Assembly (NCBI GenBank): GCA_043818055.1
Contig: JBDRGF010000042.1
Span: 1-27,304 of the forward strand
Direction of reading: 5' to 3'
Length of the DNA: 27,304 nucleotides
Source of the DNA: Pseudomonadota bacterium
GTDB lineage: Bacteria > UBA10199 > 2-02-FULL-44-16 > JBDRGF01
This document shows, in pieces, positions 1 to 14,419 of this stretch (its first letter is position 1; each line of letters begins with the position of its first letter). A program made the position numbers and the translations under genes. The notes below the pieces were generated by a model. That model was not told the origin of the DNA and searched no databases. It saw nothing but the letters and a program-made list of their open reading frames with translations.

Positions 1-537
1 TTTAATTCAGCGATGTCAGTGGCATAAGCGCGAGAACATAGTGGATTACTTGTCGAAAGAAGAACAACCCTTTATGAGGAGGCAATTACAGAGGGCTTAT
101 GAGCGACCGACATATGAAGAGGCAAGGAAATCACTTTTAAAAATTCGGAGAGATTTGGAAGAGAGGAATATATCAGCAGCAAACAGTTTGGATGAAGGAT
201 TTGAAGAGACGTTAACATTGCATCGATTAGGTCTTTTTGCAAAGTTGGGAAGAAGTCTTAAGACTAGCAATTGCATAGAGTCCATCAATTCAATGGTCGA
301 GGGGCGATGTGGAAAAGTTGATTATTGGAAGAACTCATCACAGCGGCAAAGGTGGTTGGCAGCAACATTGCTCGATATTGAGCCGAGGCTAAATCGAATC
401 AGTGGATACCGGCATTTACATGAATTGAGAGTAGCTTTGAAAAAAGAATTGAAGCTGTGTGACAAAGCTTCTAAGGAGGCTGCTTAAATGTTAACTGAAC
501 CGCTTTTCAAAATTTCAACTAAGTTTGGGATTGACCC
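1..537 (+). mobile_element. IS256-family insertion sequence, right end (partial); putative terminal inverted repeat ~510-537
   Basis: The transposase stop at 487 is followed by aaatttcaactaagtttgggattgaccc, ending in CCC (GGG on the minus strand), after which the sequence becomes sharply more AT-rich. The left IR is outside the window, so the end position is inferred. Confidence 0.6.
2..487 (+). CDS. IS256-family (Mutator-like) transposase, C-terminal part; the ORF runs off the left edge of the window
   Basis: The frame is open from position 2 (LIQRCQWHKRENIVDYL...), giving the IS256 C-x2-H motif QRCQWHK. Downstream, SLKTSNCIESINS contains the catalytic Glu region typical of IS256 transposases. 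Confidence 0.88.
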   Translation, partial: LIQRCQWHKRENIVDYLSKEEQPFMRRQLQRAYERPTYEEARKSLLKIRRDLEERNISAANSLDEGFEETLTLHRLGLFAKLGRSLKTSNCIESINSMVEGRCGKVDYWKNSSQRQRWLAATLLDIEPRLNRISGYRHLHELRVALKKELKLCDKASKEAA

Positions 538-881: not shown

Positions 882-2090
882 ATGTGTAATAATGCTTGGT
901 TTCTAATAGCATCCAATTTTATTTCCCGCTTCGGAAGTTATTTTAGCTATATGGGAATAACAATTTATATTTTTGAAAAAACTGGTTCAAATTTTGCAGT
1001 AGGGCTATCTCTCTTATTGGTTTTAATTTCTCATCTTCTAGTTGCTCCTATTATTTTAAAATACAGTGACAGTTGGGATAAGAAAAAAACTCTTATCATA
1101 TGTAATATTATATCATTATTTTTACTATTACTTTGGAGTTTCAACGCTCAAAATCTCATTTTTGGTTATGCAATAATTTTTCTTAATGGAATATTTTCAA
1201 ATATTCACCAACCAGTTCAACAATCGCTTATTTCAGTTATTGTCAAAAAGAATGCTTTGGACAAAGTAAATTCATTGTTTGGGATCTCAGGTCAGATTAA
1301 TGTTATTGCTGGTTATGCTTGTGGAGCGATAATACTTCAATATTTTGGTATTTCAAACTTATTGTATTTAGATTCACTTACTTATGGGATTTCTGCAATT
1401 TTGATTTTTCTGATTAAAATTCCTAGTCTTGAATCAGCAGTAGAACAAAAATCATTAACCTTTAAATATCGTCCATTTTTTCAGAAATTATGGGAAAATG
1501 GTGTGATGACTTATATTCTCTTTCCGTTTTTAATTGTTTCATTTGCTTTTGGAGTAAATAACGGATTAGCAGTGGGGTTTTCAAGAACGACTTTGGGCTT
1601 AAGTATTGCTAAAACTGGAATTGTGGAGGCATTTTGCGGTGTAGGATTTATTTGTGGAGGTATTATTGTCCCCAGGATATGTAGATGGGATGACGAAGTA
1701 ATTTTTTACATTGCTTCTATTTTTTCGACGATGTTTGGTGTTGCATTGGGTTTGTCAACAAATTTTACTATTGCAGCATTTTTTTGGTTTTTGGCTGGAT
1801 TTATTAATGCATTTACCTTTGTCAAATGGCGTTCATTTGTTCAAAAACGTTTGGAAATAAAAATTCAGGCACGAACATTTTCTATGATATTGACACTGAC
1901 ATCAATTACTCAACTTATTTCACTCGGATTAAGTACATATTTGGCTGATATCTACGGGCCTGCAAATTTGTTGGTTGTCTTTGGAGTTTTATCAACGTCA
2001 CTTTTAATTATTTATGGGATTTGGTTTTTCTTTTTTAATCGTAACTATGTAACCGTACAGGGATTTAATAATGAAAATATTTCTTATTAA
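882..2090 (+). CDS. MFS transporter (DHA3/MefA-EntS-like exporter)
   Basis: 402 aa with about 12 hydrophobic segments. N-terminal SNFISRFGS...IYIFEKTGS, motif-A-like YSDSWDKKK, and C-terminal IQARTFS match this exporter family. Confidence 0.9.
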   Translation: MCNNAWFLIASNFISRFGSYFSYMGITIYIFEKTGSNFAVGLSLLLVLISHLLVAPIILKYSDSWDKKKTLIICNIISLFLLLLWSFNAQNLIFGYAIIFLNGIFSNIHQPVQQSLISVIVKKNALDKVNSLFGISGQINVIAGYACGAIILQYFGISNLLYLDSLTYGISAILIFLIKIPSLESAVEQKSLTFKYRPFFQKLWENGVMTYILFPFLIVSFAFGVNNGLAVGFSRTTLGLSIAKTGIVEAFCGVGFICGGIIVPRICRWDDEVIFYIASIFSTMFGVALGLSTNFTIAAFFWFLAGFINAFTFVKWRSFVQKRLEIKIQARTFSMILTLTSITQLISLGLSTYLADIYGPANLLVVFGVLSTSLLIIYGIWFFFFNRNYVTVQGFNNENISY

Positions 2091-3918
2091 TCCACCATTA
2101 CCAAGTGATTCATATTATCCTCCTTACGGATTGATGAGTTTGGCTTCAATGCCATTTTCTAGTAGTGTAGATATAAATATTTTTGACTACAATTTAATTT
2201 ATCAGAAAAGAAAATTGGGCATTAAGGAGGTTTTTGAATTAGCGCTTACCGATTTAAGTGAAAGTGATTGCGATGTTTTGGGTTTGACGTGTAATAGCTA
2301 TACCTTACCATTTGTATATGAATTATGTAAAAATATAAAGAGTAAGCCATATCGTTTGATTGTGGGGGGACCTGGTGTTTCATTTTTGCATAGTGAGCTA
2401 TTAACAACTCCATGTAACATTGACATTGTTGTACGAGGTGAAGGAGAAATTGCATTTCAAGAATTAGTGAACAATCAGTTTGTTCCAAATAGTAGTATTC
2501 CAAATATTTCATATCGCTTACCAGACAATTCAGTGATAAACACGGATAGCTTGCTAATTGAAAACTTGGATGATTTGCCTGTATTATCCAATGGTTATGG
2601 TGTTGATATAAATGAATATGTGGTTTTAGAAAGTTATTATGACAAGAATGCTGCTGCTATAGAAATTGGAAGAGGGTGCCCATATTCATGCCCATTTTGC
2701 AGTACAAGCCAAATGTGGGGAAGACGATATAGGATGAAGTCTGTTGAACGAGTAGCAAGAGAAATAGAGTTGTTTCGAACTGAAGGATATAGAAGATTTT
2801 TATTCATTCATGATAATTTTGGCTATTCCCATTCATATGTAAAAAGTTTGTGTAATGAAATTTCGAAACTTGATATTGAATGGTCAGCTAGTATTTCATT
2901 AAATTTATTAAATCCTGATTTAATGGACTTAATGGCTAATAGCGGCTGCAAGAGAATTTATCTTGGATTAGAATCTGGTTCGAAAAGAATTTTAAAGAGA
3001 ATTCCATATAAAACAGTTAAAGGAGAAAAAGATAAAATTAATAAGCTACTATCAACATTTGATCATGCAACATTCTCATATGTGATCGGTTTTCCTGAAG
3101 AGGATAAATTGAGTTTTAAAGAAACTCTTAATGCTGCATGGCAATATAAACTTCAAGGGGTCAGTGATATTCAGCTTCATCCATATACCTATCTACCAGG
3201 GGCGACTGATTATGAAAATGTGAAAAATAGGTTACATTTTGACAATAAACATCTTTTTGCAGAACGCGAATTGAATCAAATTTTAGAAGCTTTTCATGAT
3301 ACAATTCTTGAGCATCGCAACATATTTCCAAATTATTACTTTTTTGCCCCCATTAATCTAAAAGAAAACGATTGCATACATATTATTATAGAGTGCTATT
3401 CAGTTTTATTAAATAATTTCTCACAATTGACTAAACTTCTTGAGAAATACGGATTTATTGATGTGGGGAACATTTCCTCTAAATTGATTGATTATCTCAC
3501 TAAAAATTGCCCGTCTAATATAGATTATAACAGTATTGGGCAGCTAATTATCAATTATTTTAAAGGAAATTTAGATTTAGAAATTCCTGAAAAACTTTTA
3601 TTGTTATTTTCCGAAGTTGCAGAAGTTGAGTTGAACTTAGCACATTTTCTTTTCAAAAAAAGTAATGTTAAAAATAAGATTATTAGAGATTCATTTGTGT
3701 TTATGCATAGTTCTGATACTGACGGGGTGTTTGTAATAAAACCAGGAATATATTTATATGTTAATGGTGAAAAAAACTTTATTGTTTATCGATTGAACGA
3801 TAGTGATTATGAACTTTTTAAGTTAATTCAGCATGTGAATACACCTGATGATTTTCAACAAATTAGAAAATTATATTCTAATAGTGCAGATTTATTTGAA
3901 GCACTTTTAATAAATTGA
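2071..3918 (+). CDS. Cobalamin (B12)-binding radical SAM enzyme with probable C-terminal RRE/PqqD-like domain
   Basis: N-terminal B12-binding domain (KIFLINPP, PPYGLMSLA, DVLGLT, IVGGP, VRGEGE). CxxxCxxC motif GRGCPYSCPFC at 2677-2700, followed by HDNF, GLESGS and VIGFPEE. Overlaps the MFS gene by 20 nt. Confidence 0.93.
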   Translation: MKIFLINPPLPSDSYYPPYGLMSLASMPFSSSVDINIFDYNLIYQKRKLGIKEVFELALTDLSESDCDVLGLTCNSYTLPFVYELCKNIKSKPYRLIVGGPGVSFLHSELLTTPCNIDIVVRGEGEIAFQELVNNQFVPNSSIPNISYRLPDNSVINTDSLLIENLDDLPVLSNGYGVDINEYVVLESYYDKNAAAIEIGRGCPYSCPFCSTSQMWGRRYRMKSVERVAREIELFRTEGYRRFLFIHDNFGYSHSYVKSLCNEISKLDIEWSASISLNLLNPDLMDLMANSGCKRIYLGLESGSKRILKRIPYKTVKGEKDKINKLLSTFDHATFSYVIGFPEEDKLSFKETLNAAWQYKLQGVSDIQLHPYTYLPGATDYENVKNRLHFDNKHLFAERELNQILEAFHDTILEHRNIFPNYYFFAPINLKENDCIHIIIECYSVLLNNFSQLTKLLEKYGFIDVGNISSKLIDYLTKNCPSNIDYNSIGQLIINYFKGNLDLEIPEKLLLLFSEVAEVELNLAHFLFKKSNVKNKIIRDSFVFMHSSDTDGVFVIKPGIYLYVNGEKNFIVYRLNDSDYELFKLIQHVNTPDDFQQIRKLYSNSADLFEALLIN

Positions 3919-3934
3919 TGTAAATAACAAAAAC

Positions 3935-3941
3935 GAGGAGG
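3935..3941 (+). promoter_or_regulatory. Strong Shine-Dalgarno site for the small peptide ORF
   Basis: GAGGAGG at 3935-3941, 4 nt before ATG 3946, preceded by an A-rich stretch. Confidence 0.75.
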
Positions 3942-3945
3942 AAAA

Positions 3946-4002
3946 ATGGAAAAAGTTAAAGAAGTGAAAAAAGGTGGTGCAACCTGCGGCCAAGACAGAT
4001 GA
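3946..4002 (+). CDS. Putative RiPP precursor peptide, 18 aa: MEKVKEVKKGGATCGQDR (not in the ORF track)
   Basis: ATG 3946 to TGA 4000-4002, with a perfect SD, 27 nt downstream of the radical SAM stop. A Lys/Glu-rich leader-like half and a GG motif precede a 7-aa core-like segment ATCGQDR. A strong hairpin follows. Confidence 0.7.
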   Translation: MEKVKEVKKGGATCGQDR

Positions 4003-4024
4003 AATGATTGTAATTCTGCCAAAA

Positions 4025-4053
4025 ATCCCCGGGTTTAATAAAACCCGGGGGAT
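4025..4053. terminator. GC-rich stem-loop downstream of the peptide ORF (partial terminator or mRNA-stabilising hairpin)
   Basis: CCCCGGGTTT (4027-4036), loop AATA, AAACCCGGGG (4041-4050): a perfect 10-bp stem. No U-tract on the + strand; the A5 at 4021-4025 gives a U-tract on the minus strand. Confidence 0.65.
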
Positions 4054-4131
4054 ATAGGCTCTCACAGAAAAAGGAATCATGTGTCAAATTAGAAAGTCAG
4101 TTAATTCATCTTAAGAAAAAAGGAGTTTAAA

Positions 4132-4923
4132 ATGGAAAGTTACGCGCTTTATAGCAGGATTATACCGTATTATTTTAAAGATAGATCGTCCTATGGGTTT
4201 AGTGTTAATTTAGTAGATAAGATTTGTAAAAGGGAGCTTGGCAAGTTGGATCAAGTCCATGCTTTGGATATGGGAGCGGGTTTTGGCGCACATGCAGAAA
4301 TGTTTGCGGAAAAGGGATATAATGTTACTGCGATCGAGTTATCCACTCACATGGTTAATCTGTTTCGCGAACGCCTAAAATTATCAAAGCCTGATATAAA
4401 ACAACGCATTTCCTTATTTCATGATAGTTGGTTTAATGAAGATGGTGATTGGAATAAATCAAAATCATATCAACTTATATATTTTCTAGGAAATACGATT
4501 TGGAATACTGGAAATCGCAATGATTTATCAAGACTATTACGAAATAGTTACGATTTACTTGTCGATGGTGGATTGGTTGTTTTTGATCTGGATGCCTTTG
4601 ATGATTTGGAAGATAATGCTGAGTTAGTCTGGGGAAAACCTGTAGCAACTGATGTTCCAGGTACTAAGTTTCAATCTGCTTTTTCAAAAAGACGCCTGGG
4701 TAATGATGGAGAGTTAGAAGTAACGCTTCATGTTAAATGGATAGAAAATGGAATTGAAAGAATTGAAAAAGAGAAATTTCAAACATTTGCATTTGATAGT
4801 GAAGTTGTTGAGGAAATCGCTACTCAAACAGGTTTTCAGCTTATAGAAACCCTTAAGCCAAGAAAACTTTATGATCCTACTACTACCATTGATCAAACGA
4901 TGTGGATTTTAAAAAAGAATTAA
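4132..4923 (+). CDS. Class I SAM-dependent methyltransferase
   Basis: Motif I ALDMGAGFG, post-I VTAIELS and LLVDGGLVVFD, with a beta-rich insertion as in glycine/sarcosine N-methyltransferase-like enzymes. SD AAGGAG at ~4120-4125. Confidence 0.9.
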   Translation: MESYALYSRIIPYYFKDRSSYGFSVNLVDKICKRELGKLDQVHALDMGAGFGAHAEMFAEKGYNVTAIELSTHMVNLFRERLKLSKPDIKQRISLFHDSWFNEDGDWNKSKSYQLIYFLGNTIWNTGNRNDLSRLLRNSYDLLVDGGLVVFDLDAFDDLEDNAELVWGKPVATDVPGTKFQSAFSKRRLGNDGELEVTLHVKWIENGIERIEKEKFQTFAFDSEVVEEIATQTGFQLIETLKPRKLYDPTTTIDQTMWILKKN

Positions 4924-4983
4924 ATTATTCTCTTAATTATGGATACTCTGTGGCGTATTCAAATTAGCTGGAGGTTCGGAAAT

Positions 4984-6492
4984 ATGAACAAATTTAAGTA
5001 TTATCTTATGCTATTTTTAATCTTAGGGCCTTATGTTTCGAATGCGGGTGACTATCATACTACAATCGATGTAATACCAACTAATTGGGATCCGAGGGAG
5101 CATAAAGGAGGTTTTTATTTGAGGCTTTCTGGTCAAATCTTTTGTTCACTATTACAAATGGATGACAATCTTAACGTTTCTCCTGATTTGGCTATGAAAT
5201 GGTGGATTGATAAGAATGGAAAACGTTATATTTTTCTTCTTAGGGATGATGTTTTTTTTCATAATGGTAGGAGTGTCACTGCAGATGATGTGATCTATTC
5301 CCTTAATAGAATGAAACAACGAAGTGCTTTATCTCTCGATTTGCAAATTATCAAACACATCTCAAAGCCAAATAATAATTCAGATCTTCCTGCGTATTTA
5401 AAAGAATATAAGCATGACAGAGTTGTTATTATTGAATTAAAAGAACCCTTTTCACAAATGATGAGTCTATTGGCGAATATTACAATGGCAATTTTTCCTG
5501 AAGCAGAGCTTAAGGAAAATTCCGATTTGTTTTTCAAAAAGCCTATAAGCTGTGGCCCTTTTAAATTAGCTGATTTGCAATCGAATGTTGTTATTATGGA
5601 TCGAAATGAAAAATACCATGGTGTGAAAAATCCAACGATTGATAGGTTGGTCTTTCATAAAGTTAATTCAATTAAAGCTGCTGAACTATTTAACGAAGGC
5701 AAACTTGATGACATTGTTAACTTAATGGTTGATGAAAGCAAGATTAAGAGAGAATTTAGTAAATTAGAGGGATGGATATTTATTACTAGATTTATACGGT
5801 TAAATACAAAATCAAGTGTATTTAATAAGTTACAATGTAGAAGAGCTTTTATTAGTGCTTTTGATCGAGTTTTATTTATTGAGAAAGTTGGTTTGAAGAA
5901 AATGATTCCAGCCACTGGATTTATACCAAAAGGTATGTTGGGTCATCTTGAGAATTCGCCTTTTATTTATGAACCGAAGGAATCAAAAAAACTATGGCAA
6001 CAAGCTAAATGCAATGCTCACATTTCAGTTGTAACCTCAAGAAAAAAAGAAGCCAAAGCAATAAAGTTTGTTGCAGATAATATGAAAAAGACACTTGGTG
6101 TTTCACTCGACATTAAATATGTTGATCCTGATACATGGTATAAAAAATGGCATGATTTTAAAGATGATGCTATCTTGGGCGGAATGGATAGCATGTATAT
6201 TGATCCTTATTTTATTTTAAAACATGCAGACTCACACTTTGAAAGAAATTATATGGGAATAAAAGATCCAAATATTGATAAGTTGTTATCACAAGCATCA
6301 AAAGAACATGAAAAAGAAATGCGATCGAAGATTTATCAAAAGATTGATGAATTAATAATGAAACATTCAACAATAATGCCTTTATATTATGGCGATGTAG
6401 ATTCTGGAATATATTCAGCAAAAGTGAAAGGATTAAGATTGCCACCAACAGGCACAAATTATGTTAAATATAATTCTGTAAAATTACCTTAG
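4984..6492 (+). CDS. Periplasmic solute-binding protein, family 5 (OppA/DppA-like), with no permease or ATPase genes nearby
   Basis: PDLAMKW, YIFLLRDDVFFHNGRSVTADDVIYS, PISCGPFKL and IMPLYY motifs. Start reassigned from 4939 to ATG 4984 because GGAGG lies at 4970-4974 and a signal peptide (MNKFKYYLMLFLILGPYVSNA) follows. Confidence 0.9.
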   Translation: MNKFKYYLMLFLILGPYVSNAGDYHTTIDVIPTNWDPREHKGGFYLRLSGQIFCSLLQMDDNLNVSPDLAMKWWIDKNGKRYIFLLRDDVFFHNGRSVTADDVIYSLNRMKQRSALSLDLQIIKHISKPNNNSDLPAYLKEYKHDRVVIIELKEPFSQMMSLLANITMAIFPEAELKENSDLFFKKPISCGPFKLADLQSNVVIMDRNEKYHGVKNPTIDRLVFHKVNSIKAAELFNEGKLDDIVNLMVDESKIKREFSKLEGWIFITRFIRLNTKSSVFNKLQCRRAFISAFDRVLFIEKVGLKKMIPATGFIPKGMLGHLENSPFIYEPKESKKLWQQAKCNAHISVVTSRKKEAKAIKFVADNMKKTLGVSLDIKYVDPDTWYKKWHDFKDDAILGGMDSMYIDPYFILKHADSHFERNYMGIKDPNIDKLLSQASKEHEKEMRSKIYQKIDELIMKHSTIMPLYYGDVDSGIYSAKVKGLRLPPTGTNYVKYNSVKLP

Positions 6493-6511: not shown

Positions 6512-8773
6512 ATGATTAAGCTTCAAAGGCATTTGTCATTTTTTTTAGCGTTGGTTTCGTTTATTGGCATTTTAGTGACGTCTTTTGTTATCGTGTATTA
6601 TTCCAAAATCCGTTTGTATGATGAATATTATAAATCAGCAATATCTCAGACTGATCGTGAGGTGTTAAATTTAAAAGAATATTTAACTCTTTATGAATAC
6701 TCAGAAATTATGAAGAGATACAGTAAGGATTTGCATATTCCTAATCTTATACAACTTACTGTATATGATGATGAGGATAGGATTATCGTAAAATGGAATA
6801 AAAGAAATAATATTGCAACTAATGTTAAGAATTATGATTCTATTCAACGAAAGATTAGTGCGTCTCAGAATACAGATAAAATAGTTGGTAGATTGTTAAT
6901 GGTATTTTCCCCCGAGCTGATTAATGATTTGTTTATTAAAGGTACTGCTTTGATAATACTATCAGGAATTATAATTGCCCTATGTGTAATAGTTATAGTG
7001 ATGAAAATTATCCATAAAACTATTGTTCCAATTAACAATATTACTGATAGAATGCGTAACTATGATCCTGACAGCAAAGAAGCTTTATTAACAATTACAG
7101 ATTCACGAATTTATGAGTTTAATATTTTATATTCCTCATTTAGAGAAATGGACAATGCAATAAAGAAACACCAGAGTATTGCTAGAGAGAATGCTGGTCT
7201 TGCTGCAATAGGGCAAACAACTTCTATGCTAGCCCATGATGTTCGTAAACCTTTTTCCATTTTGAAAGCTATATTGGACTCAGCTGATCATTATTTATCC
7301 AATTCCAACGACCTGGAAGAAGCTAAGCTCTCATTAGAGAAATCAATCAAACAAGTGGAAACAATGATAAATGACATAATGGATTTTTCGAGGGAGGAAA
7401 AACTCGATTCGAGTCCCACTTCAATAGTGCCGGTATTTGATTTTTCCATTAGACAGGCATCACAGCATTTTCAAGATTCTGATATTGATTTCATCTTCAA
7501 TATTTCCAATAGCTATAAGCCGATGATAGATGATGAAAGGATCTCAAGAGTCTTTGTGAATATTATATCTAATGGAATAGAAGCAATACTTCAAATAGGT
7601 GAAGTAAAATCAGGAACAATTGATATTTCAACTACGGATATTAGTCAAAGTGGAGTGAAATCTATTAGAATTGTGATCGGAAACGATGGTCCTCCGATTG
7701 ATGAAGAAAATATCCCGCACTTATTTGATTCGTTCTTTACTAAGGGAAAGAAAAAGGGGACAGGGATCGGGTTAGCTTCAGCTCTTAAGATAGTCACTTT
7801 GCATGGGGGAACAATATTAGCACAGAATCGTGAAGGCCAAAAGGGTGTTGAATTTATCATTACATTACCTGCTTCAAATGAGGATGATGATTCTGATTCA
7901 TCAATTTTGCCTAAAAATATAGTTGAGACTCAATTTATTAAAACTACCAAGGATGAAACTGAAATTGAGAAGATGATCAAAATGATGTCAGTAGCGAAAC
8001 AGAATATGAAGATATTGCTGCTCGAAGACGAAGCATTGTACAGGGCTTCCGTTAGAAACGCTATCAAGCAATATCATGATTTAGATAATCTTCTAACTTT
8101 GTATGAAGTACAAACAGTTGATGATGCCTTAAAATTATTGCAAACAGAGGATATAACTCACGCAATAGTTGATGTCGATTTGGGAGATGTTAAAAATGGG
8201 TTTGATTTTCTGGCTGTAGCACGGAAAAGCTATCCCTTGCTTCGATGCATGGTTCATTCAAACAGATGTATTGAGGAAGATAAGAAAAGAGCATATATGC
8301 TTGGAGCAAAGGCATTTGTTCCCAAACCACTTAATGTTGAACATCTTGTGGCGTTCTTGCAGGATGAGCACATAGTCTCAAATCGACTGCAAATCGGAAG
8401 CAAATTGACAATCCTGCTAATTAACGATGAACGTGCACTGAATTTAATGGCTAAAAACATGCTGAATGAAGTCTTAAAAATGAAACACAATTATGGTAAT
8501 GAGATTCAGTTCCATATGGCCAGTTCATATAATGAGGCTATTGCTTTGATTAAGGAGATAAACTTTGATTTTATCTTCTGTGATCTTGATTTGGGAAGCT
8601 CTCAAAATGGATATGATGTTCTTAATACTCTTAAAGAATTAAAACGAAAATCCAGATTTTATATCATCTCAGGAACACCGAGAAGCCAAGCGGAGCCGAA
8701 AGCTTTAGAACTCGGTGCTGATGGGTATCTGCAGTTGCCTATAGACCCGAGCGACTTCATTGATATCATTTGA
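6512..8773 (+). CDS. Membrane hybrid sensor histidine kinase (2 TM, periplasmic domain, HAMP-like linker, HisKA, HATPase, two REC domains)
   Basis: H-box MLAHDVRKPF, N-box VNIISNGIEA, G1 NDGPPI, F-box LFDSFFT, G2 GTGIGL. REC1: ILLLEDE...IVDVDL...FVPKP. REC2: ILLINDE...FCDLDL...YLQLP. Confidence 0.93.
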   Translation: MIKLQRHLSFFLALVSFIGILVTSFVIVYYSKIRLYDEYYKSAISQTDREVLNLKEYLTLYEYSEIMKRYSKDLHIPNLIQLTVYDDEDRIIVKWNKRNNIATNVKNYDSIQRKISASQNTDKIVGRLLMVFSPELINDLFIKGTALIILSGIIIALCVIVIVMKIIHKTIVPINNITDRMRNYDPDSKEALLTITDSRIYEFNILYSSFREMDNAIKKHQSIARENAGLAAIGQTTSMLAHDVRKPFSILKAILDSADHYLSNSNDLEEAKLSLEKSIKQVETMINDIMDFSREEKLDSSPTSIVPVFDFSIRQASQHFQDSDIDFIFNISNSYKPMIDDERISRVFVNIISNGIEAILQIGEVKSGTIDISTTDISQSGVKSIRIVIGNDGPPIDEENIPHLFDSFFTKGKKKGTGIGLASALKIVTLHGGTILAQNREGQKGVEFIITLPASNEDDDSDSSILPKNIVETQFIKTTKDETEIEKMIKMMSVAKQNMKILLLEDEALYRASVRNAIKQYHDLDNLLTLYEVQTVDDALKLLQTEDITHAIVDVDLGDVKNGFDFLAVARKSYPLLRCMVHSNRCIEEDKKRAYMLGAKAFVPKPLNVEHLVAFLQDEHIVSNRLQIGSKLTILLINDERALNLMAKNMLNEVLKMKHNYGNEIQFHMASSYNEAIALIKEINFDFIFCDLDLGSSQNGYDVLNTLKELKRKSRFYIISGTPRSQAEPKALELGADGYLQLPIDPSDFIDII

Positions 8774-11700
8774 TTTTTGAATTGGATATCTCTTTAAATT
8801 TATCGAGTAGTACCGGATTATTTCCTGCAAGTTTCTTCAAAAATGGGAGCAGGGATCGCGCCTCGGAATCCCTATTCTGCATTTTCAATGCGTTGAACTT
8901 CCAGTAGCCACTGACAAATTTCAAGGCATGGCTGGCATCAGGCAATTTGGCCATAGCAGAATCGGCCTGATCGATCAAACCGTAAGCCTCGTCGAACTTT
9001 TTCGTATGGATATAGGCCTCAGCCAACCCCAATTCTGCTCTTACCTGCAAATAATCACTGTTTCCCAAGCTCATTGCCGCTTCGAAATATTTTGGAGATT
9101 CGTTGAACTCTCCTTTTTCATTGTAACAGTTGCCTGTGTTAACCCATACGAATTTAGTAACTCTCTCGTGCTCTTCGAAACTGTCGAGGCATGTGCTTGC
9201 GGATAAGCAATGCTGATTCTCAGCGATCGATCTATCGAATTTTTTCGAATCGAAATAACAGGCTGATAAAACTGAATGCACAATGACCAGCCACCTGCCA
9301 TGTGATATTTGTTTAGCCAGATGATAGGCTTCCTGAGCATATTTTACAGCCTCTGAATACTTGGTAACTTTTCTCAAGCCTTCAGCTAATGAGAGACAGG
9401 CCAGCATGATCTTCAATATATTGTTGCTCTTTTTGCACTTATCCAATTCCCATTCCATGGCTTCGATAGCTTCACTAGTTTTCCCCAAAGCTAACAATAT
9501 CTGACCGAGTTCGTTATCGGTAACCAATGCCATGTTCGGATGATGGATTTTCTTTTCCAAATCCCGGCTCCTATTGTAAATCCTTTCAGCGTCCAGAAGA
9601 TACTTGCGGTCTTTGTTTCTCAGTTTGAAATTTATTCTTCCTTCCCAATTCAGGAAATAAATATTGTGAGAAGCGAATCGTTCATTGCCGCTTATTTTTC
9701 GGGCTTGTGAGATTATTTCTTTTGCCTCATCGAATTGCCCGGATTCGACGAAAGAGGGCAGAATCGATGTAAAAAGGCGCAATTTGCAAATATTCGTTTC
9801 TACCTCGTTTAGACCATGTGTCATCACTTCGGATTCATCGTAAAGCTCGAAAGCTTTTCGATATTCTCCTGAACAATAATATACATGTAATAACAACGAT
9901 CGCACATATATGGACAATCTCATCATCTTTGACGGAAGATATGACAGAGCCTTTATTAGCAGCTGTTGAGATAATAATATTTCTCCCTTCGTTGATAAAA
10001 GGCTACGCGCAAGCTTGATCAGACAGGCTAAACCTTTTATATCATGATTTCCGAATCCTGTGTGTAAATACAGTGCATCGCGATACGGTAATGAGCTAAC
10101 ACGTTTCAATTTAAGAAAGCCCGCTATTGCGAGATGATGCATGGTTTTCAATTCATCATTGAGATGGTCATAAATCACATCGGAAAAATATGGATTGTAA
10201 AATGTGTACGTCTTATCTTCCAGTACCTGTTCACTATTATCTATAGGATAGAGCGTGATCTCACTCTCATTCGTATCATCTGAACTGTTATCGTCAAATG
10301 CATGATGTTTCAATATTTGCTTTCGACATAGGCTTGTCAAATGCTGGCTGATACTGAGACCGGGGAAAAAATGACGAAGATCTATGACAGACACCGGAGG
10401 GGACACCCATTTCAAATGCCATACTGATAGTAAATCGATTATTCGTTTTTCAGAGGTATTCAATGCATCATATTGCCTCATGATGCGATTTTCAGTCGTT
10501 TTTGGAGCTTTTTTCCGACTCTTACTTATTTCAGGTGCGTGTGCTTTGAAAAGATGAACATTTCCATCGAGGTCAAATAACAGACCTTCGCTATCGAGTT
10601 GTATCAGCTGTTCGCTTATTTCGCTCGGGATACCTCCCGTTTGGCGCAAAAGAGTACGAATCCATTTCAGTGAAATATCCTGTTTTTTCAGAGCCAGAGT
10701 CGATTTGAGATAGTTGCTTATTCCATCTTCTCCAAAAGGTTTGAGGTCTATCATCTTGAGCGGCAAATCGTTCATTTTTGTGATCGTACCCACGACGTTT
10801 TTCGAAGAACGGATCTGGCAGGGATCGCTTGAAAAACAAAACATAACCGGTTTTAAATGCTCATACAACTGAGGTTGTGATTTTCGTTGGGCTAAACCAT
10901 GAGCCAAGCCAATCAGCGATTTTCGAATCTGCTCGAAACCCGAAGAGGTTTTCCCGTTGCTGCCGAAGAGATGCAAATCATCTATCAATATCAATAAGGG
11001 ATATCTATTTTCATCCAATAGTCTCGCCAACTGGAGGGTCCATGTAAGCGCCCATTCTTCATCGATCGGAAATCTGATCTGGTGCAAAAGCATCTGTCCC
11101 ATCTTCTTTTCGGCGAAATTTCTAATTTCCTGAAGAAAGCAGCTTTTGCCCAGGCCCTTTTCGCCGGAAATGCAATAAACAGAAAAAGGGGAGGGCTGCA
11201 CACCTTTTGCTATGGAACTTATGCTATCGCTGATCTCCCCTATCTCGGATTCACATCCGACAAATTTATCTGGTATCAGATAACAGGATTTGATCTCCTG
11301 GGATTCCATAAAACTATCCGGCAAGCGAGTCTTAAGCGCGTTTATCACAGCTCGTGCCGTTCCGTAAAACCGATCAGAAGGATTGCGCTGCAATAACCTC
11401 ATGACTATTGTGTCCAAATATTCCGGAATATCCGGGCTTCGCGTTTTCAAAGATTTTGGAGATAGTTCGCTTTCGACAATTTGTGCCAGTTTTTTTGGAT
11501 CTTTCTGCCAACCATATCTCTTTTTGAAAGGATACGTATGCGCCAGACAATAGTACATGAGTGCTGCGGCTGAGAAGAGATCGGTAGAAGCGCCTATCTG
11601 ATTTTCCCAGGACAGGATCACTTCCGGAGCGATATACATAGGCGTCCCTAGCATATGTCTTTTATTTGCCGTAATCGCTGTGGCGATTCCGAAATCGATG

Positions 11701-12236
11701 ATCTTGACAACCGGCTTTCCGTCAATTTCTTTGATCAGGACGTTTTCAGGCTTGATATCGCCATGCAATAACCCGCTATCGTGAATAAATTGCAGGCCTT
11801 CGAACAACTGGATGAAGAAGGGGGGCATCGAATCTTCCGAAATTTTCCTCGTATATACAAATATGTCGTATCCTTCGATGTATTCAGAGGTAAAATATAA
11901 GAAATCCTCGAAAAGACCGAATTCATAAACCGAAGCTATATTCGGGTGATTAATACCGAGAAGTTGATGTTGATATTCCTCTTTAAATCGCTCTATGACG
12001 TTCTGGTAATGCTTTGAAAACTTCTCTTCGAGGTGTTCCGAGGTGAGTTTCTCGTTGGCGTGCTTGATTTTGAATGAAGCGAATACAGTTTCCCTATTCA
12101 GAAATTTCAGCGCGACAGGTTTCTTTTGTTCCAAATCGGTGGCTAAATAGACAATGCCAAAACCACCTTGACCGATTTCGCGTTCGATCCGGTTATGTCC
12201 TACTATCGTGCCTGGCAAAATCTCCGTAATATCCAT
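8766..12236 (-). CDS. Hanks-type Ser/Thr protein kinase fused to a P-loop ATPase (STAND/AAA-like) and C-terminal TPR repeats
   Basis: Kinase motifs IGQGGFGIVY, VALK, HGDIKPEN, DFG, GTPMYIAPE and DLFS. Walker A GEKGLGKS, Walker B LLILIDD, TGGIP motif, and a helical TPR-like C-terminus. Overlaps the HK stop convergently by 8 nt. Confidence 0.9.
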   Translation of the reverse strand: MDITEILPGTIVGHNRIEREIGQGGFGIVYLATDLEQKKPVALKFLNRETVFASFKIKHANEKLTSEHLEEKFSKHYQNVIERFKEEYQHQLLGINHPNIASVYEFGLFEDFLYFTSEYIEGYDIFVYTRKISEDSMPPFFIQLFEGLQFIHDSGLLHGDIKPENVLIKEIDGKPVVKIIDFGIATAITANKRHMLGTPMYIAPEVILSWENQIGASTDLFSAAALMYYCLAHTYPFKKRYGWQKDPKKLAQIVESELSPKSLKTRSPDIPEYLDTIVMRLLQRNPSDRFYGTARAVINALKTRLPDSFMESQEIKSCYLIPDKFVGCESEIGEISDSISSIAKGVQPSPFSVYCISGEKGLGKSCFLQEIRNFAEKKMGQMLLHQIRFPIDEEWALTWTLQLARLLDENRYPLLILIDDLHLFGSNGKTSSGFEQIRKSLIGLAHGLAQRKSQPQLYEHLKPVMFCFSSDPCQIRSSKNVVGTITKMNDLPLKMIDLKPFGEDGISNYLKSTLALKKQDISLKWIRTLLRQTGGIPSEISEQLIQLDSEGLLFDLDGNVHLFKAHAPEISKSRKKAPKTTENRIMRQYDALNTSEKRIIDLLSVWHLKWVSPPVSVIDLRHFFPGLSISQHLTSLCRKQILKHHAFDDNSSDDTNESEITLYPIDNSEQVLEDKTYTFYNPYFSDVIYDHLNDELKTMHHLAIAGFLKLKRVSSLPYRDALYLHTGFGNHDIKGLACLIKLARSLLSTKGEILLSQQLLIKALSYLPSKMMRLSIYVRSLLLHVYYCSGEYRKAFELYDESEVMTHGLNEVETNICKLRLFTSILPSFVESGQFDEAKEIISQARKISGNERFASHNIYFLNWEGRINFKLRNKDRKYLLDAERIYNRSRDLEKKIHHPNMALVTDNELGQILLALGKTSEAIEAMEWELDKCKKSNNILKIMLACLSLAEGLRKVTKYSEAVKYAQEAYHLAKQISHGRWLVIVHSVLSACYFDSKKFDRSIAENQHCLSASTCLDSFEEHERVTKFVWVNTGNCYNEKGEFNESPKYFEAAMSLGNSDYLQVRAELGLAEAYIHTKKFDEAYGLIDQADSAMAKLPDASHALKFVSGYWKFNALKMQNRDSEARSLLPFLKKLAGNNPVLLDKFKEISNSKIK

Positions 12237-12266
12237 AAATTAAACAGAAAAAATAAGCTGAAAATT

Positions 12267-13322
12267 CTACCGGTTCGACATGCTTTTGGTAACCGTAGTA
12301 TCACCCAATTTTTTCTTGTTGAGCTCGTCCTGAAACAGCTCCGTGATTTTCTTTGAGACCACACGAGCGCTCTTGAGTGATCTGTTTTCGGGATTCGCTT
12401 TCAATAGAGCCACGATTATATCCTCTAGCTTGTCAATTTTAGCAGCTGCCTCTTTATCACAATCCTTCTGGAGCATCAGAGTATTTCTCTGCGAGGGTTT
12501 CATCTGCTCATGCTCTTTTGTCACTATTTCCTTAAGTTTGCCAATATCGGAAACTTCTTCGCGATCCGGAAATGGATCGGCACGACACATGCAGGAATAA
12601 GCCAAAGCAGCGAAGGAATATAAGTCGGATGTCTCTGAGATTTTACCGGACTCTTGCAAGATCACCTCAGGCGCGGAATATATCGGTGAGCCATATGATT
12701 TAATGGCAACCTCGCCAATATCAACCGCATAGCCATAATCTGTAAGCTTGGTTACCGAGGGATAGGCTGCTTTAACGAAGACCCGTTTTGACTTCAGATT
12801 GAGATGCAATAGGTTTTCGTCATGGATGAAATCGAGCGCTTCGAGTATGGACAAAAATATCGGGATCATTCCGAGTATGCTCATGCCGCATGTGACATCG
12901 AATATCGGAGCCCCGTCCACGTACTCCGTAGTCACTACCGCCTCGCCATTATGATCTATTCCGACATCTATCACTTTCGCGATGTTCGGATGATCGAGCC
13001 CGACAACTCTCGTATGGCGTCTGATGAAATCCTTCAGTTCGTCTTGATATTTGGATTCGGCATTTTTCTTGAACTCAACGCGTATTTCGTCGGTATCGGA
13101 TCCAGATTGAGGAATAAAACCATATTGAACCTCGAATTTCATCTTGTCCAAGCGGGATATGAGCACTTTGTCGTTCGTACGTGTATCAACTGCCAGTTGG
13201 GATTTGGTCCACTTGCTAGGTTCTTCACCTTGAGACAGATCACGAATCACGACGTAATTTTTCAACATTGCGTCCGTGCTTTGAAGCTCCGATGCCATTT
13301 TAGTAGGTTCGATATTTGTCAT
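12267..13322 (-). CDS. Ser/Thr kinase-like protein, probable pseudokinase
   Basis: The kinase fold is retained (LDHPNIAKV, TEYVDG, GSPIYSAPE, SDLYSF). The catalytic loop reads HLNLK (Asp to Asn), the Gly-rich loop is lost, VAxK is replaced by VLIS, and DFG reads DYG. SD GGGGG upstream. Confidence 0.85.
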   Translation of the reverse strand: MTNIEPTKMASELQSTDAMLKNYVVIRDLSQGEEPSKWTKSQLAVDTRTNDKVLISRLDKMKFEVQYGFIPQSGSDTDEIRVEFKKNAESKYQDELKDFIRRHTRVVGLDHPNIAKVIDVGIDHNGEAVVTTEYVDGAPIFDVTCGMSILGMIPIFLSILEALDFIHDENLLHLNLKSKRVFVKAAYPSVTKLTDYGYAVDIGEVAIKSYGSPIYSAPEVILQESGKISETSDLYSFAALAYSCMCRADPFPDREEVSDIGKLKEIVTKEHEQMKPSQRNTLMLQKDCDKEAAAKIDKLEDIIVALLKANPENRSLKSARVVSKKITELFQDELNKKKLGDTTVTKSMSNR

Positions 13323-13468
13323 AATGCCCCCCTTAATGATTTAATTCCTTTATTTTACACTAGGCTGAACAGACTGTCATTAAATTTTCAATGCCTTGTA
13401 ACCTTATATTTTTGCCTATTATGAACCGTTTGACTGTGATTAACAAAGGATTTCTAGCGTTATTTCTT

Positions 13469-13497
13469 TTGCTACGAATGGGCTATTGTAGTATATA
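13469..13497 (+). promoter_or_regulatory. Possible sigma70 promoter for the phosphatase gene
   Basis: TTGCTA (13469-13474), 17-nt spacer, TATATA (13492-13497), 25 nt upstream of the ATG. Weak evidence in AT-rich DNA. Confidence 0.3.
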
Positions 13498-13522
13498 TAC
13501 CCTCTGAAAAAGAGGGGGATAT

Positions 13523-14419
13523 ATGACTACGAAAAAGCCTAAAATACGCTCTTATGCAGCTACGGAGCAATTGGAGAGAAAAGAGAATCAGGATTACTAT
13601 TTTTCCGACGGAAAAAGCAAACTCTACCTTGTCGCAGACGGAATGGGGGGATTCGAGGGTGGGGCATATGCAAGCAAATTTACTTCAGAACTGGCCTCGA
13701 AACTCATCGAGACCATCGACAGCCTCTCTTCTCAGCATTCAGGTCATGATGATACCTTTGTGCCGGAAACTTTCGAAGCAACAGCTGATTATGAAACAAT
13801 CCTGCAAACATTGATCAGGGAGATTCACGACCGGATCATTAGCGAAACTGATAGATTGGCATTCGAAAAGATGGGTTGCACATTAGTTCTGGTACTCTTC
13901 AGAAATTCAAAAGCTTATGTCCTTAACGTGGGCGATTCTCCATGTTATCTATACAGCGAACAAACACTAAGACAGATAACGCGTTCACATTCGAAAGTGG
14001 ATCAGATGGTAAGGGATGGCGAGATTACGAAAGAAGAGGCAAAAATTCACCCCAAAAGAAATGTGGTTACAAGATGTATCGGAGGAGCGAAGGAAAAGGC
14101 CGTGGCTGATATCCACATCATGCCATATTATGAGAACGACCGGTTTTTCCTGTGTACGGATGGGGTGACTAAAGTCCTGACCGATGAACAGATAGAGTCT
14201 TTTTTAAAATACAAAGACCCCAAAGAAGCGATCGATCTGATGATGGGCACTATCAAAGACGCTCCCCCGACTCGTTCATCAACCTCTGGAAAAATAATAG
14301 CAAAAGACAATGCAACTGCGATGATCGTCGATGTGGCCTCTCTGGGAGAAAAGGTCTTGAAAGATGAGAAGAACCCCCCGACAGTAAAACATAATCACAA
14401 GGAAGATACGATTCTGTAA
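13523..14419 (+). CDS. PP2C/PPM-family Ser/Thr protein phosphatase (PrpC/Stp1-like)
   Basis: RKENQD, VADGMGG, MGCT, NVGDS, HPKRNVVTRCIG, LCTDGV and KDNAT motifs. SD GAGGGGG upstream. Confidence 0.93.
   Translation: MTTKKPKIRSYAATEQLERKENQDYYFSDGKSKLYLVADGMGGFEGGAYASKFTSELASKLIETIDSLSSQHSGHDDTFVPETFEATADYETILQTLIREIHDRIISETDRLAFEKMGCTLVLVLFRNSKAYVLNVGDSPCYLYSEQTLRQITRSHSKVDQMVRDGEITKEEAKIHPKRNVVTRCIGGAKEKAVADIHIMPYYENDRFFLCTDGVTKVLTDEQIESFLKYKDPKEAIDLMMGTIKDAPPTRSSTSGKIIAKDNATAMIVDVASLGEKVLKDEKNPPTVKHNHKEDTIL

Follow-up and report, generated by a model that had tools for sequence, protein, structure and literature searches.

The cassette around the 18-codon reading frame

The window, that is the whole stretch of 27,304 nucleotides that was analysed, contains an AT-rich cassette of co-oriented genes. 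In this order, they encode an MFS transporter, a B12-binding radical-SAM enzyme (B12-rSAM), a peptide of 18 residues, a class I methyltransferase (MT), a family-5 substrate-binding protein (SBP) and a hybrid histidine kinase (Table 1). A first-pass annotation had drawn attention to the small open reading frame (ORF), its GAGGAGG Shine-Dalgarno (SD) sequence, the 27 nt that separate its ATG from the stop codon of the rSAM gene (3916-3918) and the 10-bp hairpin behind it, all of which are confirmed in the sequence. The genome contains a 16S tail complementary to GAGGAGG, and a 4-nt spacer is ordinary in it, being found in 40 of the 243 genes that have an ATG start and an SD of at least 5 nt. The hairpin has a terminator-like score on the minus strand only.

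Table 1. Features of the cassette and its upstream neighbour in the window
Feature	Position	Strand	Basis or remark
IS256-family transposase, 3' part, and presumed right element end	41..537	+	NF033543, PF00872; neighbour outside the system
MFS transporter, 402 aa, presumed exporter	882..2090	+	PF07690
B12-binding radical-SAM enzyme, 615 aa, CxxxCxxC at residues 203-210	2071..3918	+	PF02310, PF04055
rSAM C-terminal domain, residues 430-615, DUF2063/RRE-like, presumed precursor-binding	3358..3915	+	structure search
Shine-Dalgarno GAGGAGG, 4 nt 5' of ATG	3935..3941	+	sequence
Putative precursor ORF, 18 aa, MEKVKEVKKGGATCGQDR	3946..4002	+	ATG at 3946, stop ends 4002
Perfect 10-bp hairpin without U-tract, putative 3' stabiliser or attenuator of the precursor message	4027..4050	+	sequence
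Class I SAM-dependent methyltransferase, 263 aa	4132..4923	+	PF13649
Family-5 SBP, no adjoining permease genes	4939..6492	+	PF00496; likely start 4984 (SD before 4984)
Membrane histidine kinase, small periplasmic domain, two receiver domains	6512..8773	+	HisKA, HATPase_c, two Response_reg stretches; N-terminal alignment

No permease, peptidase or ABC exporter is encoded in the cassette, which also has no output regulator of its own. The end of the IS256 element lies 345 nt upstream, and positions 481-537 match other contigs at 90-100%. A sigma-54 motif is absent from the upstream region (488-881). Since such a motif is present in the paralogous cassettes, the IS256 insertion may have altered the promoter of the window cassette. 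On the other side (8766-14419), the cassette is adjoined by genes named by eye as a Ser/Thr kinase (1156 aa), a second kinase-like gene and a PP2C-like phosphatase, and a similar trio, likewise named by eye, adjoins the C99 cassette of the same genome described below.

The host genome (2.93 Mb, 93.6% complete) encodes BamA, and the cell thus has a periplasm; LpxC was not found in it. Parts of the MFS, rSAM, MT and SBP genes are represented, at a depth of 2-10 and with one differing letter, in contigs from three DNA runs and one metatranscriptome. None of these contigs spans 3500-4099, so they are silent on expression or variation of the peptide, and the RNA contigs may be DNA.

Conservation of a small reading frame beside the B12-rSAM gene

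An SD followed by a small ORF is by itself not beyond chance, since an ORF of at most 60 aa starts at 51 of the genome's 87 GAGGAGG-N3-10-ATG sites. The evidence for the 18-aa ORF that goes beyond chance is the conservation of its position in related cassettes. Its sequence has no close homologue in the genome and metagenome searches, and a short-query tblastn against its own genome gave chance matches only, as did Rfam with two microRNA matches below threshold. NCBIfam holds no family for any of eight small peptides of at least 20 aa from related loci, the 18-mer itself being under the length limit. The first-pass annotation had moreover argued from the GC-rich codons of the core. This argument is void, because amino-acid composition accounts for the 13 of 21 GC positions, given 11.2 expected from the amino acids and the codon usage of the cassette (p=0.14).

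Three paralogous units lie in the host genome itself, and further related cassettes were gathered by profile searches of 93 genomes of the same phylum and by one metagenome scan. C99 encodes an rSAM that is 40% identical, a 62-aa ORF ending in MVNRIRLGSCNSRDYQM, an MT, an SBP, a kinase and a sigma-54 activator. C35 consists of genes for a MATE transporter, a different MT, an rSAM, the peptide MKLIEVVACEAEQPIA, an SBP and a kinase. C73 encodes an MFS transporter, an MT, an SBP, a kinase and an activator; it has no rSAM, no SD-led small ORF and, in the gap, no rSAM remnant. A 23-aa ORF in this gap has G-x-A-x-C in common with the 18-mer and lacks an SD; it was excluded from the counts of nine precursors used below. 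Apart from these three units, the C75 cluster of the host genome contains an SD-led 26-aa ORF in the same layout with a different rSAM family.

In other genomes and in the metagenome, L097 and L102 have the exact order of the window cassette (MFS, rSAM, a 57-aa ORF, MT, SBP, kinase), and G033 has a related cassette with a small ORF of 65 aa. G005 reads MFS, rSAM, MKKEEKKAKETKVKRVKPKIVCNYGYC, a gene of unknown kind, SBP and kinase; the gene after the peptide was considered as an MT of the cassette family and rejected (7% identity, no Pfam match). G088 reads rSAM, MKKKETVNKIKKVISQM, hairpin and SBP, and its contig ends inside the SBP. In L159 (G026:C27, 671-6179), a 17-aa ORF, MAEKKVVRIKKKRPSAW, precedes a pair of B12-rSAM genes that are near-duplicates, and an MFS gene, with no adjoining sensor pair, and an unlinked SBP-kinase pair of the family is found on C29 of this genome. 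In G014:C58, too, the small ORF (39 aa) precedes the rSAM gene. An MFS or MATE gene is present in the related cassettes with a readable upstream side, C99 excepted. The closest rSAM relatives outside the host genome are P0003, P0004, P0123, P0125 and P0126. Five further proteins (P0122, P0124, P0127, P0128 and P0132; 1280-2331 aa) have two to four B12-rSAM profile matches each and are multi-module fusions.

Further searches had the following yields. A search of the genome contigs with the single rSAM query gave five distant loci, none with a cassette, and the MT found only itself. Among the 80 of 376 confirmed loci listed from the metagenome scan, which used a four-sequence alignment, there was one true cassette in two copies (L097 and L102); L041 is the window sequence cut before the peptide, and the rest of these 80 are other systems. 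The SBP search returned 21 proteins without genomic context. Several of 20 further kinase neighbourhoods have other units of a small ORF plus an enzyme before the SBP-kinase pair (e.g., G057, G072:C201 with 46 aa, an MT and an NMT1-type SBP, G011 and G014:C58), and most have none.

For a chance test we used 94 distinct B12-rSAM genes from the collected loci, of at least 230 bits with a complete 3' end and at least 300 nt downstream, near-duplicates being merged. Counted were ATG ORFs of 10-70 aa with an SD of at least 5 nt and a start between -15 and +45 nt from the rSAM stop, and SBP genes within 2.7 kb downstream. An SD-led small ORF (16-65 aa) lies directly 3' of all seven B12-rSAM genes with a downstream SBP (five genomes), as compared to 3 of 87 without such an SBP, or 2 of 54 where 2.7 kb are readable. 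Rule and profiles of this test were set after the cases had been seen, and the Fisher value of 1e-8 overstates the result, because three of the seven share one genome and two are close kin. In G014:C33 (MFS, SBP and rSAM; the contig ends upstream) no SD-led small ORF follows the rSAM gene, and it is counted among the 87. When the long ORFs of the genome are taken instead, 12 of 1159 are followed by such a small ORF, four being these RiPP-like loci. Conservation of ORF and SD in related clusters, whose absence the first-pass annotation had named as refuting its proposal, is found as a conserved position in 7/7 cassettes. Perfect stems of at least 10 bp are, moreover, found 3' of five of the nine precursors, and stems of at least 9 bp 3' of 7% of 1181 ordinary ORFs.

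Only L097 and G033, whose rSAMs are 66% identical, are close enough for a comparison of coding constraint. Codons 1-13 show six synonymous changes and one non-synonymous change, the first five codons overlapping the rSAM tail, and codons 6-24 show eight synonymous and seven non-synonymous changes. Cys-Ala-Asp is kept with two synonymous changes. We conclude that the 18-codon gene is very likely real, and that it is both a real gene and an enzyme substrate is highly probable.

A putative recognition strand and candidate chemistry

The precursors have little sequence in common, and MAFFT gave no meaningful alignment of ten peptides. The pattern V-x-[KRE]-[IV]-[KR], followed by tails of 6-11 residues, occurs in five of the nine (per-peptide shuffle frequencies 0.004-0.06), was defined post hoc from the precursors and is absent from the other four; by eye, K/R-S-V-R-I in L097/G033 and K-L-I-E-V in C35 look like variants of it. 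In the 18-mer, residues 4-8 (VKEVK) match this recurring recognition strand, and residues 9-18 are the variable part. The G088 peptide has six residues after the strand and no Cys; altogether, Cys is present in six of nine precursors and absent from three. The strand is probably the enzyme-binding leader.

A candidate partner for it is found in the rSAM itself. N-terminal B12-binding and CxxxCxxC radical-SAM domains (PF02310 and PF04055, over cut-off) give this enzyme a class B architecture, and CxxxCxxC is invariant in rSAM alignments. The best NCBIfam model is ApyD, with 173 bits against a cut-off of 750, and the PDB matches include TokK and CysS as well as the non-methylating AprD4 and OxsB. 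An Atlas structure search with residues 430-615 gave predicted models of DUF2063 / HvfC-BufC clusters as its top three hits (TM by query 0.59, 0.55 and 0.64, under the bar for naming a family), and weak matches to PqqD and to NGO1945_C are each found in 2 of 40 rSAM homologues. HvfC-BufC-type proteins are described as DUF2063 fused to a RiPP recognition element (RRE) (PMC12452194), and in RRE domains the bound precursor forms a fourth beta strand (PMC11117315). This is suggestive of an RRE-like C-terminal domain that presumably binds the precursor, and VKEVK would fit as a strand added to the sheet of such a domain.

The first-pass annotation had read the ORF as an unusually short leader-core RiPP precursor whose leader ends in GG. 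The division into an N-terminal recognition part and a C-terminal part to be modified is supported, given the 7/7 SD-led ORFs and the RRE-like domain. GG as the boundary between them does not, and the double-glycine reading is rejected: GG is found in one of nine precursors, that of the window, while C99 has GS before its Cys and the others have nothing alike. The annotation had correctly placed Val at -5 and -8 from the GG; positions -4 and -7 are both Lys, and position -12 does not exist. Leaders cut by PCATs, the C39-type enzymes, carry hydrophobic residues at -4, -7 and -12 before GG (PMC10885120). Measured against the cited account of these double-glycine leaders, the 18-mer resembles them in the GG dipeptide before a plausible core and differs in a leader that is too short, in lacking the hydrophobic residues, in a GG that is not conserved and in the absence of a PCAT. 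The window has no C39 peptidase, as had been remarked before, and the one C39-like match of the 93.6% complete genome is a stand-alone 260-aa ORF on contig C130 (29.7 bits). A search for conserved GG-x-x-C peptides, which had been recommended, would have failed, GG being found in 1/9. A cut near GG by another peptidase is possible. In our view, the 18-aa ORF very probably codes for a precursor, very short but real, in a B12-rSAM RiPP family that is as yet undescribed, and not for a double-glycine peptide.

As to the chemistry, the MT profile is nearest to uncharacterised proteins, followed by glycine/sarcosine and aminosugar N-methyltransferases. Among its PDB matches are N-methyltransferases of glycine/sarcosine (1e-10), an N,N-dimethyltransferase of a dTDP-aminosugar (1e-6) and, as a weak match, the N-terminal methyltransferase of cypemycin (6.5e-6). 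Judged by these relatives, methylation of an amine would be somewhat likelier than that of a thiol. For the thiol, the sequence of steps catalysed by TmoS and TmoD, S-methylation and then extension by a B12-rSAM (PMC9303977), could serve as a model for Cys14 by analogy, though three precursors have no Cys. In the cited part of that work, TmoS did not methylate unmodified Cys (PMC9303977). Formation of a crosslink (-2 Da) appears less likely than +14 Da steps, because the rSAM is of the B12-binding type without a SPASM match. To no single modification scheme for the 18-mer would we give better than a minority chance. In G011 (L191, G011:C92; 6479-6508, minus strand), a 9-codon ORF, MTPCRESGK, has a full 8-nt SD and lies between an upstream sigma-54-like motif and a downstream hairpin; it precedes an MT-SBP-kinase unit with no rSAM gene. 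This arrangement suggests that an MT can act by itself on a tiny peptide with Cys.

A candidate signal and the adjoining SBP-kinase pair

What makes the locus of the 18-mer interesting is the adjoining SBP-kinase pair, on which the first-pass annotation of the ORF is silent. The best PDB matches of the SBP are DppE, PrgZ and OppA, and its nearest relatives are dipeptide, oligopeptide and pheromone binding proteins. The SBP gene is directly followed by the kinase gene in six of seven cassettes, the seventh being G088 with its truncated contig. In the SBP tree, the window SBP pairs with C73. C99 groups with G088 as its sister (100/99), and VN[KR]I[KR] and a terminal QM are found in the peptides of both, despite rSAMs that fall into different clades of a quick rSAM tree. 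L097 and G033 are also sisters and have similar peptides. The match of peptide and receptor thus rests on two pairs, one of which includes a partial SBP (G088, 163 aa). SBP-kinase pairs without an upstream biosynthetic gene are present in G014:C86, G072:C58 and G026:C29, which fits what is expected of eavesdropping receptors. Sigma-54-type promoters precede C99, C35, C73 and C75, but not the window cassette, and C99 encodes a sigma-54 activator, both of which fit feedback control. Cross-control between cassettes is possible, because C35 has no sigma-54 activator of its own. Within the first 250 nt of G000:C35 and G000:C73, an identical sigma-54-type promoter string lies equally far from the start of either contig, perhaps a shared repeat where the assembly broke.

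We put at about 0.55 the probability that the product of the ORF is matured into a small modified peptide that is used as an extracellular signal via its own SBP-kinase pair. Provided that the gene is real and its product an enzyme substrate, signalling through this pair becomes fairly probable. The host is an uncultured Gram-negative groundwater bacterium, and the peptide is probably a small methylated signal. In the mechanism that we propose, the RRE-like domain of the rSAM would bind the strand V-K-E-V-K, and the B12-rSAM would add one or more C-methyl groups in KGGATCGQDR. The target of the MT would be either an amine, with the new N-terminus as the likeliest one, or the thiol of Cys14; in the latter case, the rSAM could then extend the S-methyl group as TmoD does. 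Housekeeping peptidases, rather than a C39 enzyme at GG, would trim the leader, and the MFS transporter would export the product to the periplasm, where the SBP of the cassette would bind it and switch the adjacent kinase. With several cassettes per genome, different peptides and diverged SBPs would make separate channels. Against the signal reading are the absence of a peptidase from the cassette and of an SD-led small ORF from G014:C33 and C73.

The main rival to the peptide-signal reading, unlikely in our estimate, takes the peptide as a scaffold: only the last one or two residues (Asp-Arg) would be modified, and what general peptidases then set free, a methylated amino acid or dipeptide, would be exported and sensed. 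The logic of pearlins and of fosfazinomycin offers a parallel, the 22-aa precursor FzmZ being trimmed by general aminopeptidases (10.64898/2026.09.23.753898). The missing peptidase would then be no surprise, MFS exporters suit small molecules, the terminal QM that C99 and G088 have in common goes with sister SBPs, and the short, Cys-free tail of the G088 peptide agrees as well. However, L097 and G033 keep an internal Cys-Ala-Asp while their tails are wholly different, and the cassette has no PEARL, MNIO or amidotransferase gene. It is distinctly improbable that the product acts in the main as an effector, antimicrobial or otherwise, with the SBP-kinase pair serving only autoinduction or self-sensing. 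Many RiPPs regulate their own clusters, as in the nisin type; several distinct cassettes per genome would also fit competition, and the MFS transporter could confer self-resistance. Yet the cores are very short, polar and variable, no immunity gene or outer-membrane exporter is present in the cassette, and three relatives have receptor-only pairs.

We consider it more improbable still that the small ORF is translated in a regulatory role, by coupling or by attenuation with the hairpin, and that the enzymes act on a non-peptide metabolite sensed by the SBP. The low sequence conservation among the peptides, the hairpin directly 3' and C73, which keeps MT, SBP and kinase without a clear peptide, would agree with this. 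The RRE-like domain of the rSAM and the amino-acid-level constraint in L097/G033 speak against it, as does the lack of a U-tract behind the hairpin. An attenuator would moreover be expected at a fixed position, so the small ORFs upstream of the rSAM in G026:C27 and G014:C58 also count against attenuation. Least probable of all is metal scouting, in which an exported Cys peptide would bind periplasmic metal and the SBP would report the complex to the kinase. An MFS exporter and a family-5 SBP are staphylopine-like parts, Cys is found in 6/9 precursors, and the NikA and CntA models match the SBP, if weakly. Peptide-binding SBPs, though, score well above nickel-binding ones, no permease is present, 3/9 precursors have no Cys, and methylation would block the thiol as a ligand.

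Read more broadly, the cassettes could belong to a modular code for RiPP quorum sensing, lineage-wide in a diderm phylum; we put this forward tentatively and hold it to be somewhat improbable. Precursors of 9-65 residues, interchangeable enzymes (B12-rSAM, MT, SPASM rSAM, DUF4135-like), export and cognate SBP-kinase pairs would make up the code. The host genome by itself would have at least four or five channels, and relatives would hold pairs that are receptors only. In that case, a new RiPP class would be founded on the 18-mer, marked by an enzyme-binding strand of five residues and by the lack of a dedicated protease.

Most known peptide autoinducers come from Gram-positive bacteria. No publication that describes this cassette was found among main texts, mostly open-access, so a mention in an SSN table is possible. 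Several published systems resemble parts of it. Aminopyruvatide biosynthesis by ApyD/ApyS in Burkholderia thailandensis also uses an RRE-containing B12-rSAM, ApyD, which beta-methylates Tyr, and a methyltransferase on a ribosomal precursor (PMC11117315). Compared to the cited description, our cassette has the ApyD score of 173/750 bits, no MNIO (class-defining there), no P450 and no Tyr-Leu-Tyr-Asp core, and in addition the SBP-kinase pair. No MNIO was found among the six cassette-side proteins scanned, and the 18-mer contains no Tyr, hence no Tyr-x-Tyr-Asp end. In the pearlin pathway to 3-thiahomoleucine, the class I MT TmoS and then the B12-rSAM TmoD act on a Cys-derived thiol of a peptide (PMC9303977). 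As the cited part presents that pathway, our cassette differs in having no PEARL enzyme gene, no MNIO and no protease, and in its internal Cys. Clavusporins (mpc, 10.1101/2024.01.23.576971) are alike in the transporter, the short precursor and leader-dependent C-methylation by a B12-rSAM. According to the cited passages, they differ by a 39-aa precursor, an S9 peptidase, a DUF5825 partner, CX7CX2C and a hydrophobic surfactant product, none of which is found in this cassette.

On the receptor side, LuxP/LuxQ, CBP/ChiS and ScrB/ScrC each consist of a periplasmic SBP that is encoded with the membrane sensor it signals to, CBP being of family 5 (PMC8050422). The window SBP likewise adjoins a kinase and not a transporter, as is the case for SBP-stimulated sensors. 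Table 1 of that 2021 publication has, in its sensor-kinase rows as cited, no peptide ligand (PMC8050422); here, unlike in LuxPQ or ChiS, the ligand would be a ribosomal peptide from the same operon. Streptococcal RaS-RiPPs and clostridial SCIFF/ranthipeptides are short rSAM-modified precursors tied to quorum sensing, but the cited text describes crosslinking enzymes, Gram-positive hosts and Rgg control, with no B12 methylase and no SBP-kinase pair (PMC8326336).

Precursor, tailoring enzymes, exporter and receptor lie in one cassette, and the circuit can therefore be tested in a laboratory host though the organism is uncultured. If the proposal is true, the 18-mer would represent a new substrate class of B12-rSAMs and, at 18 aa as compared to 22 aa in FzmZ, one of the shortest leader-bearing precursors, and the cassettes would provide natural peptide-receptor pairs for studies of specificity. 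FzmZ was missed by a RODEO search with a 30-aa limit (10.64898/2026.09.23.753898), and 18 aa lies below this limit as well.

Some further units came up alongside. L192 (G057:C67, 175-6412) contains an MFS gene, a 23-aa acidic ORF with a strong SD and genes for a DUF4135-like 354-aa protein, a family-5 SBP and a kinase, so that the layout is kept with another enzyme, and L199 (G014:C8, 4792-7463, minus strand) a 25-aa SD-led ORF with genes for a SPASM radical-SAM enzyme and an MFS transporter. In the metagenome, L078, L079, L080 and L091 have a B12-rSAM gene flanked by SD-led ORFs of 43-46 aa with a common LRPRKFQDPLL-like stretch and a P-I-Y-A end. These form a separate precursor family, and the one tested has no NCBIfam match. 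G000:C38 of the host's own genome has, at ~3850-4330, three SD-led ORFs in tandem (71-86 aa) whose ends are Cys-rich (C-x-x-x-C-G-C-x-G). They are followed by an unknown gene, a family-5 SBP gene and, at the contig end, a methyltransferase gene, making this another RiPP-like unit with a binding protein. Finally, in G003:C22, G012:C35 and G014:C39 of relatives, family-5 SBP genes stand in tandem, five to seven to an array.
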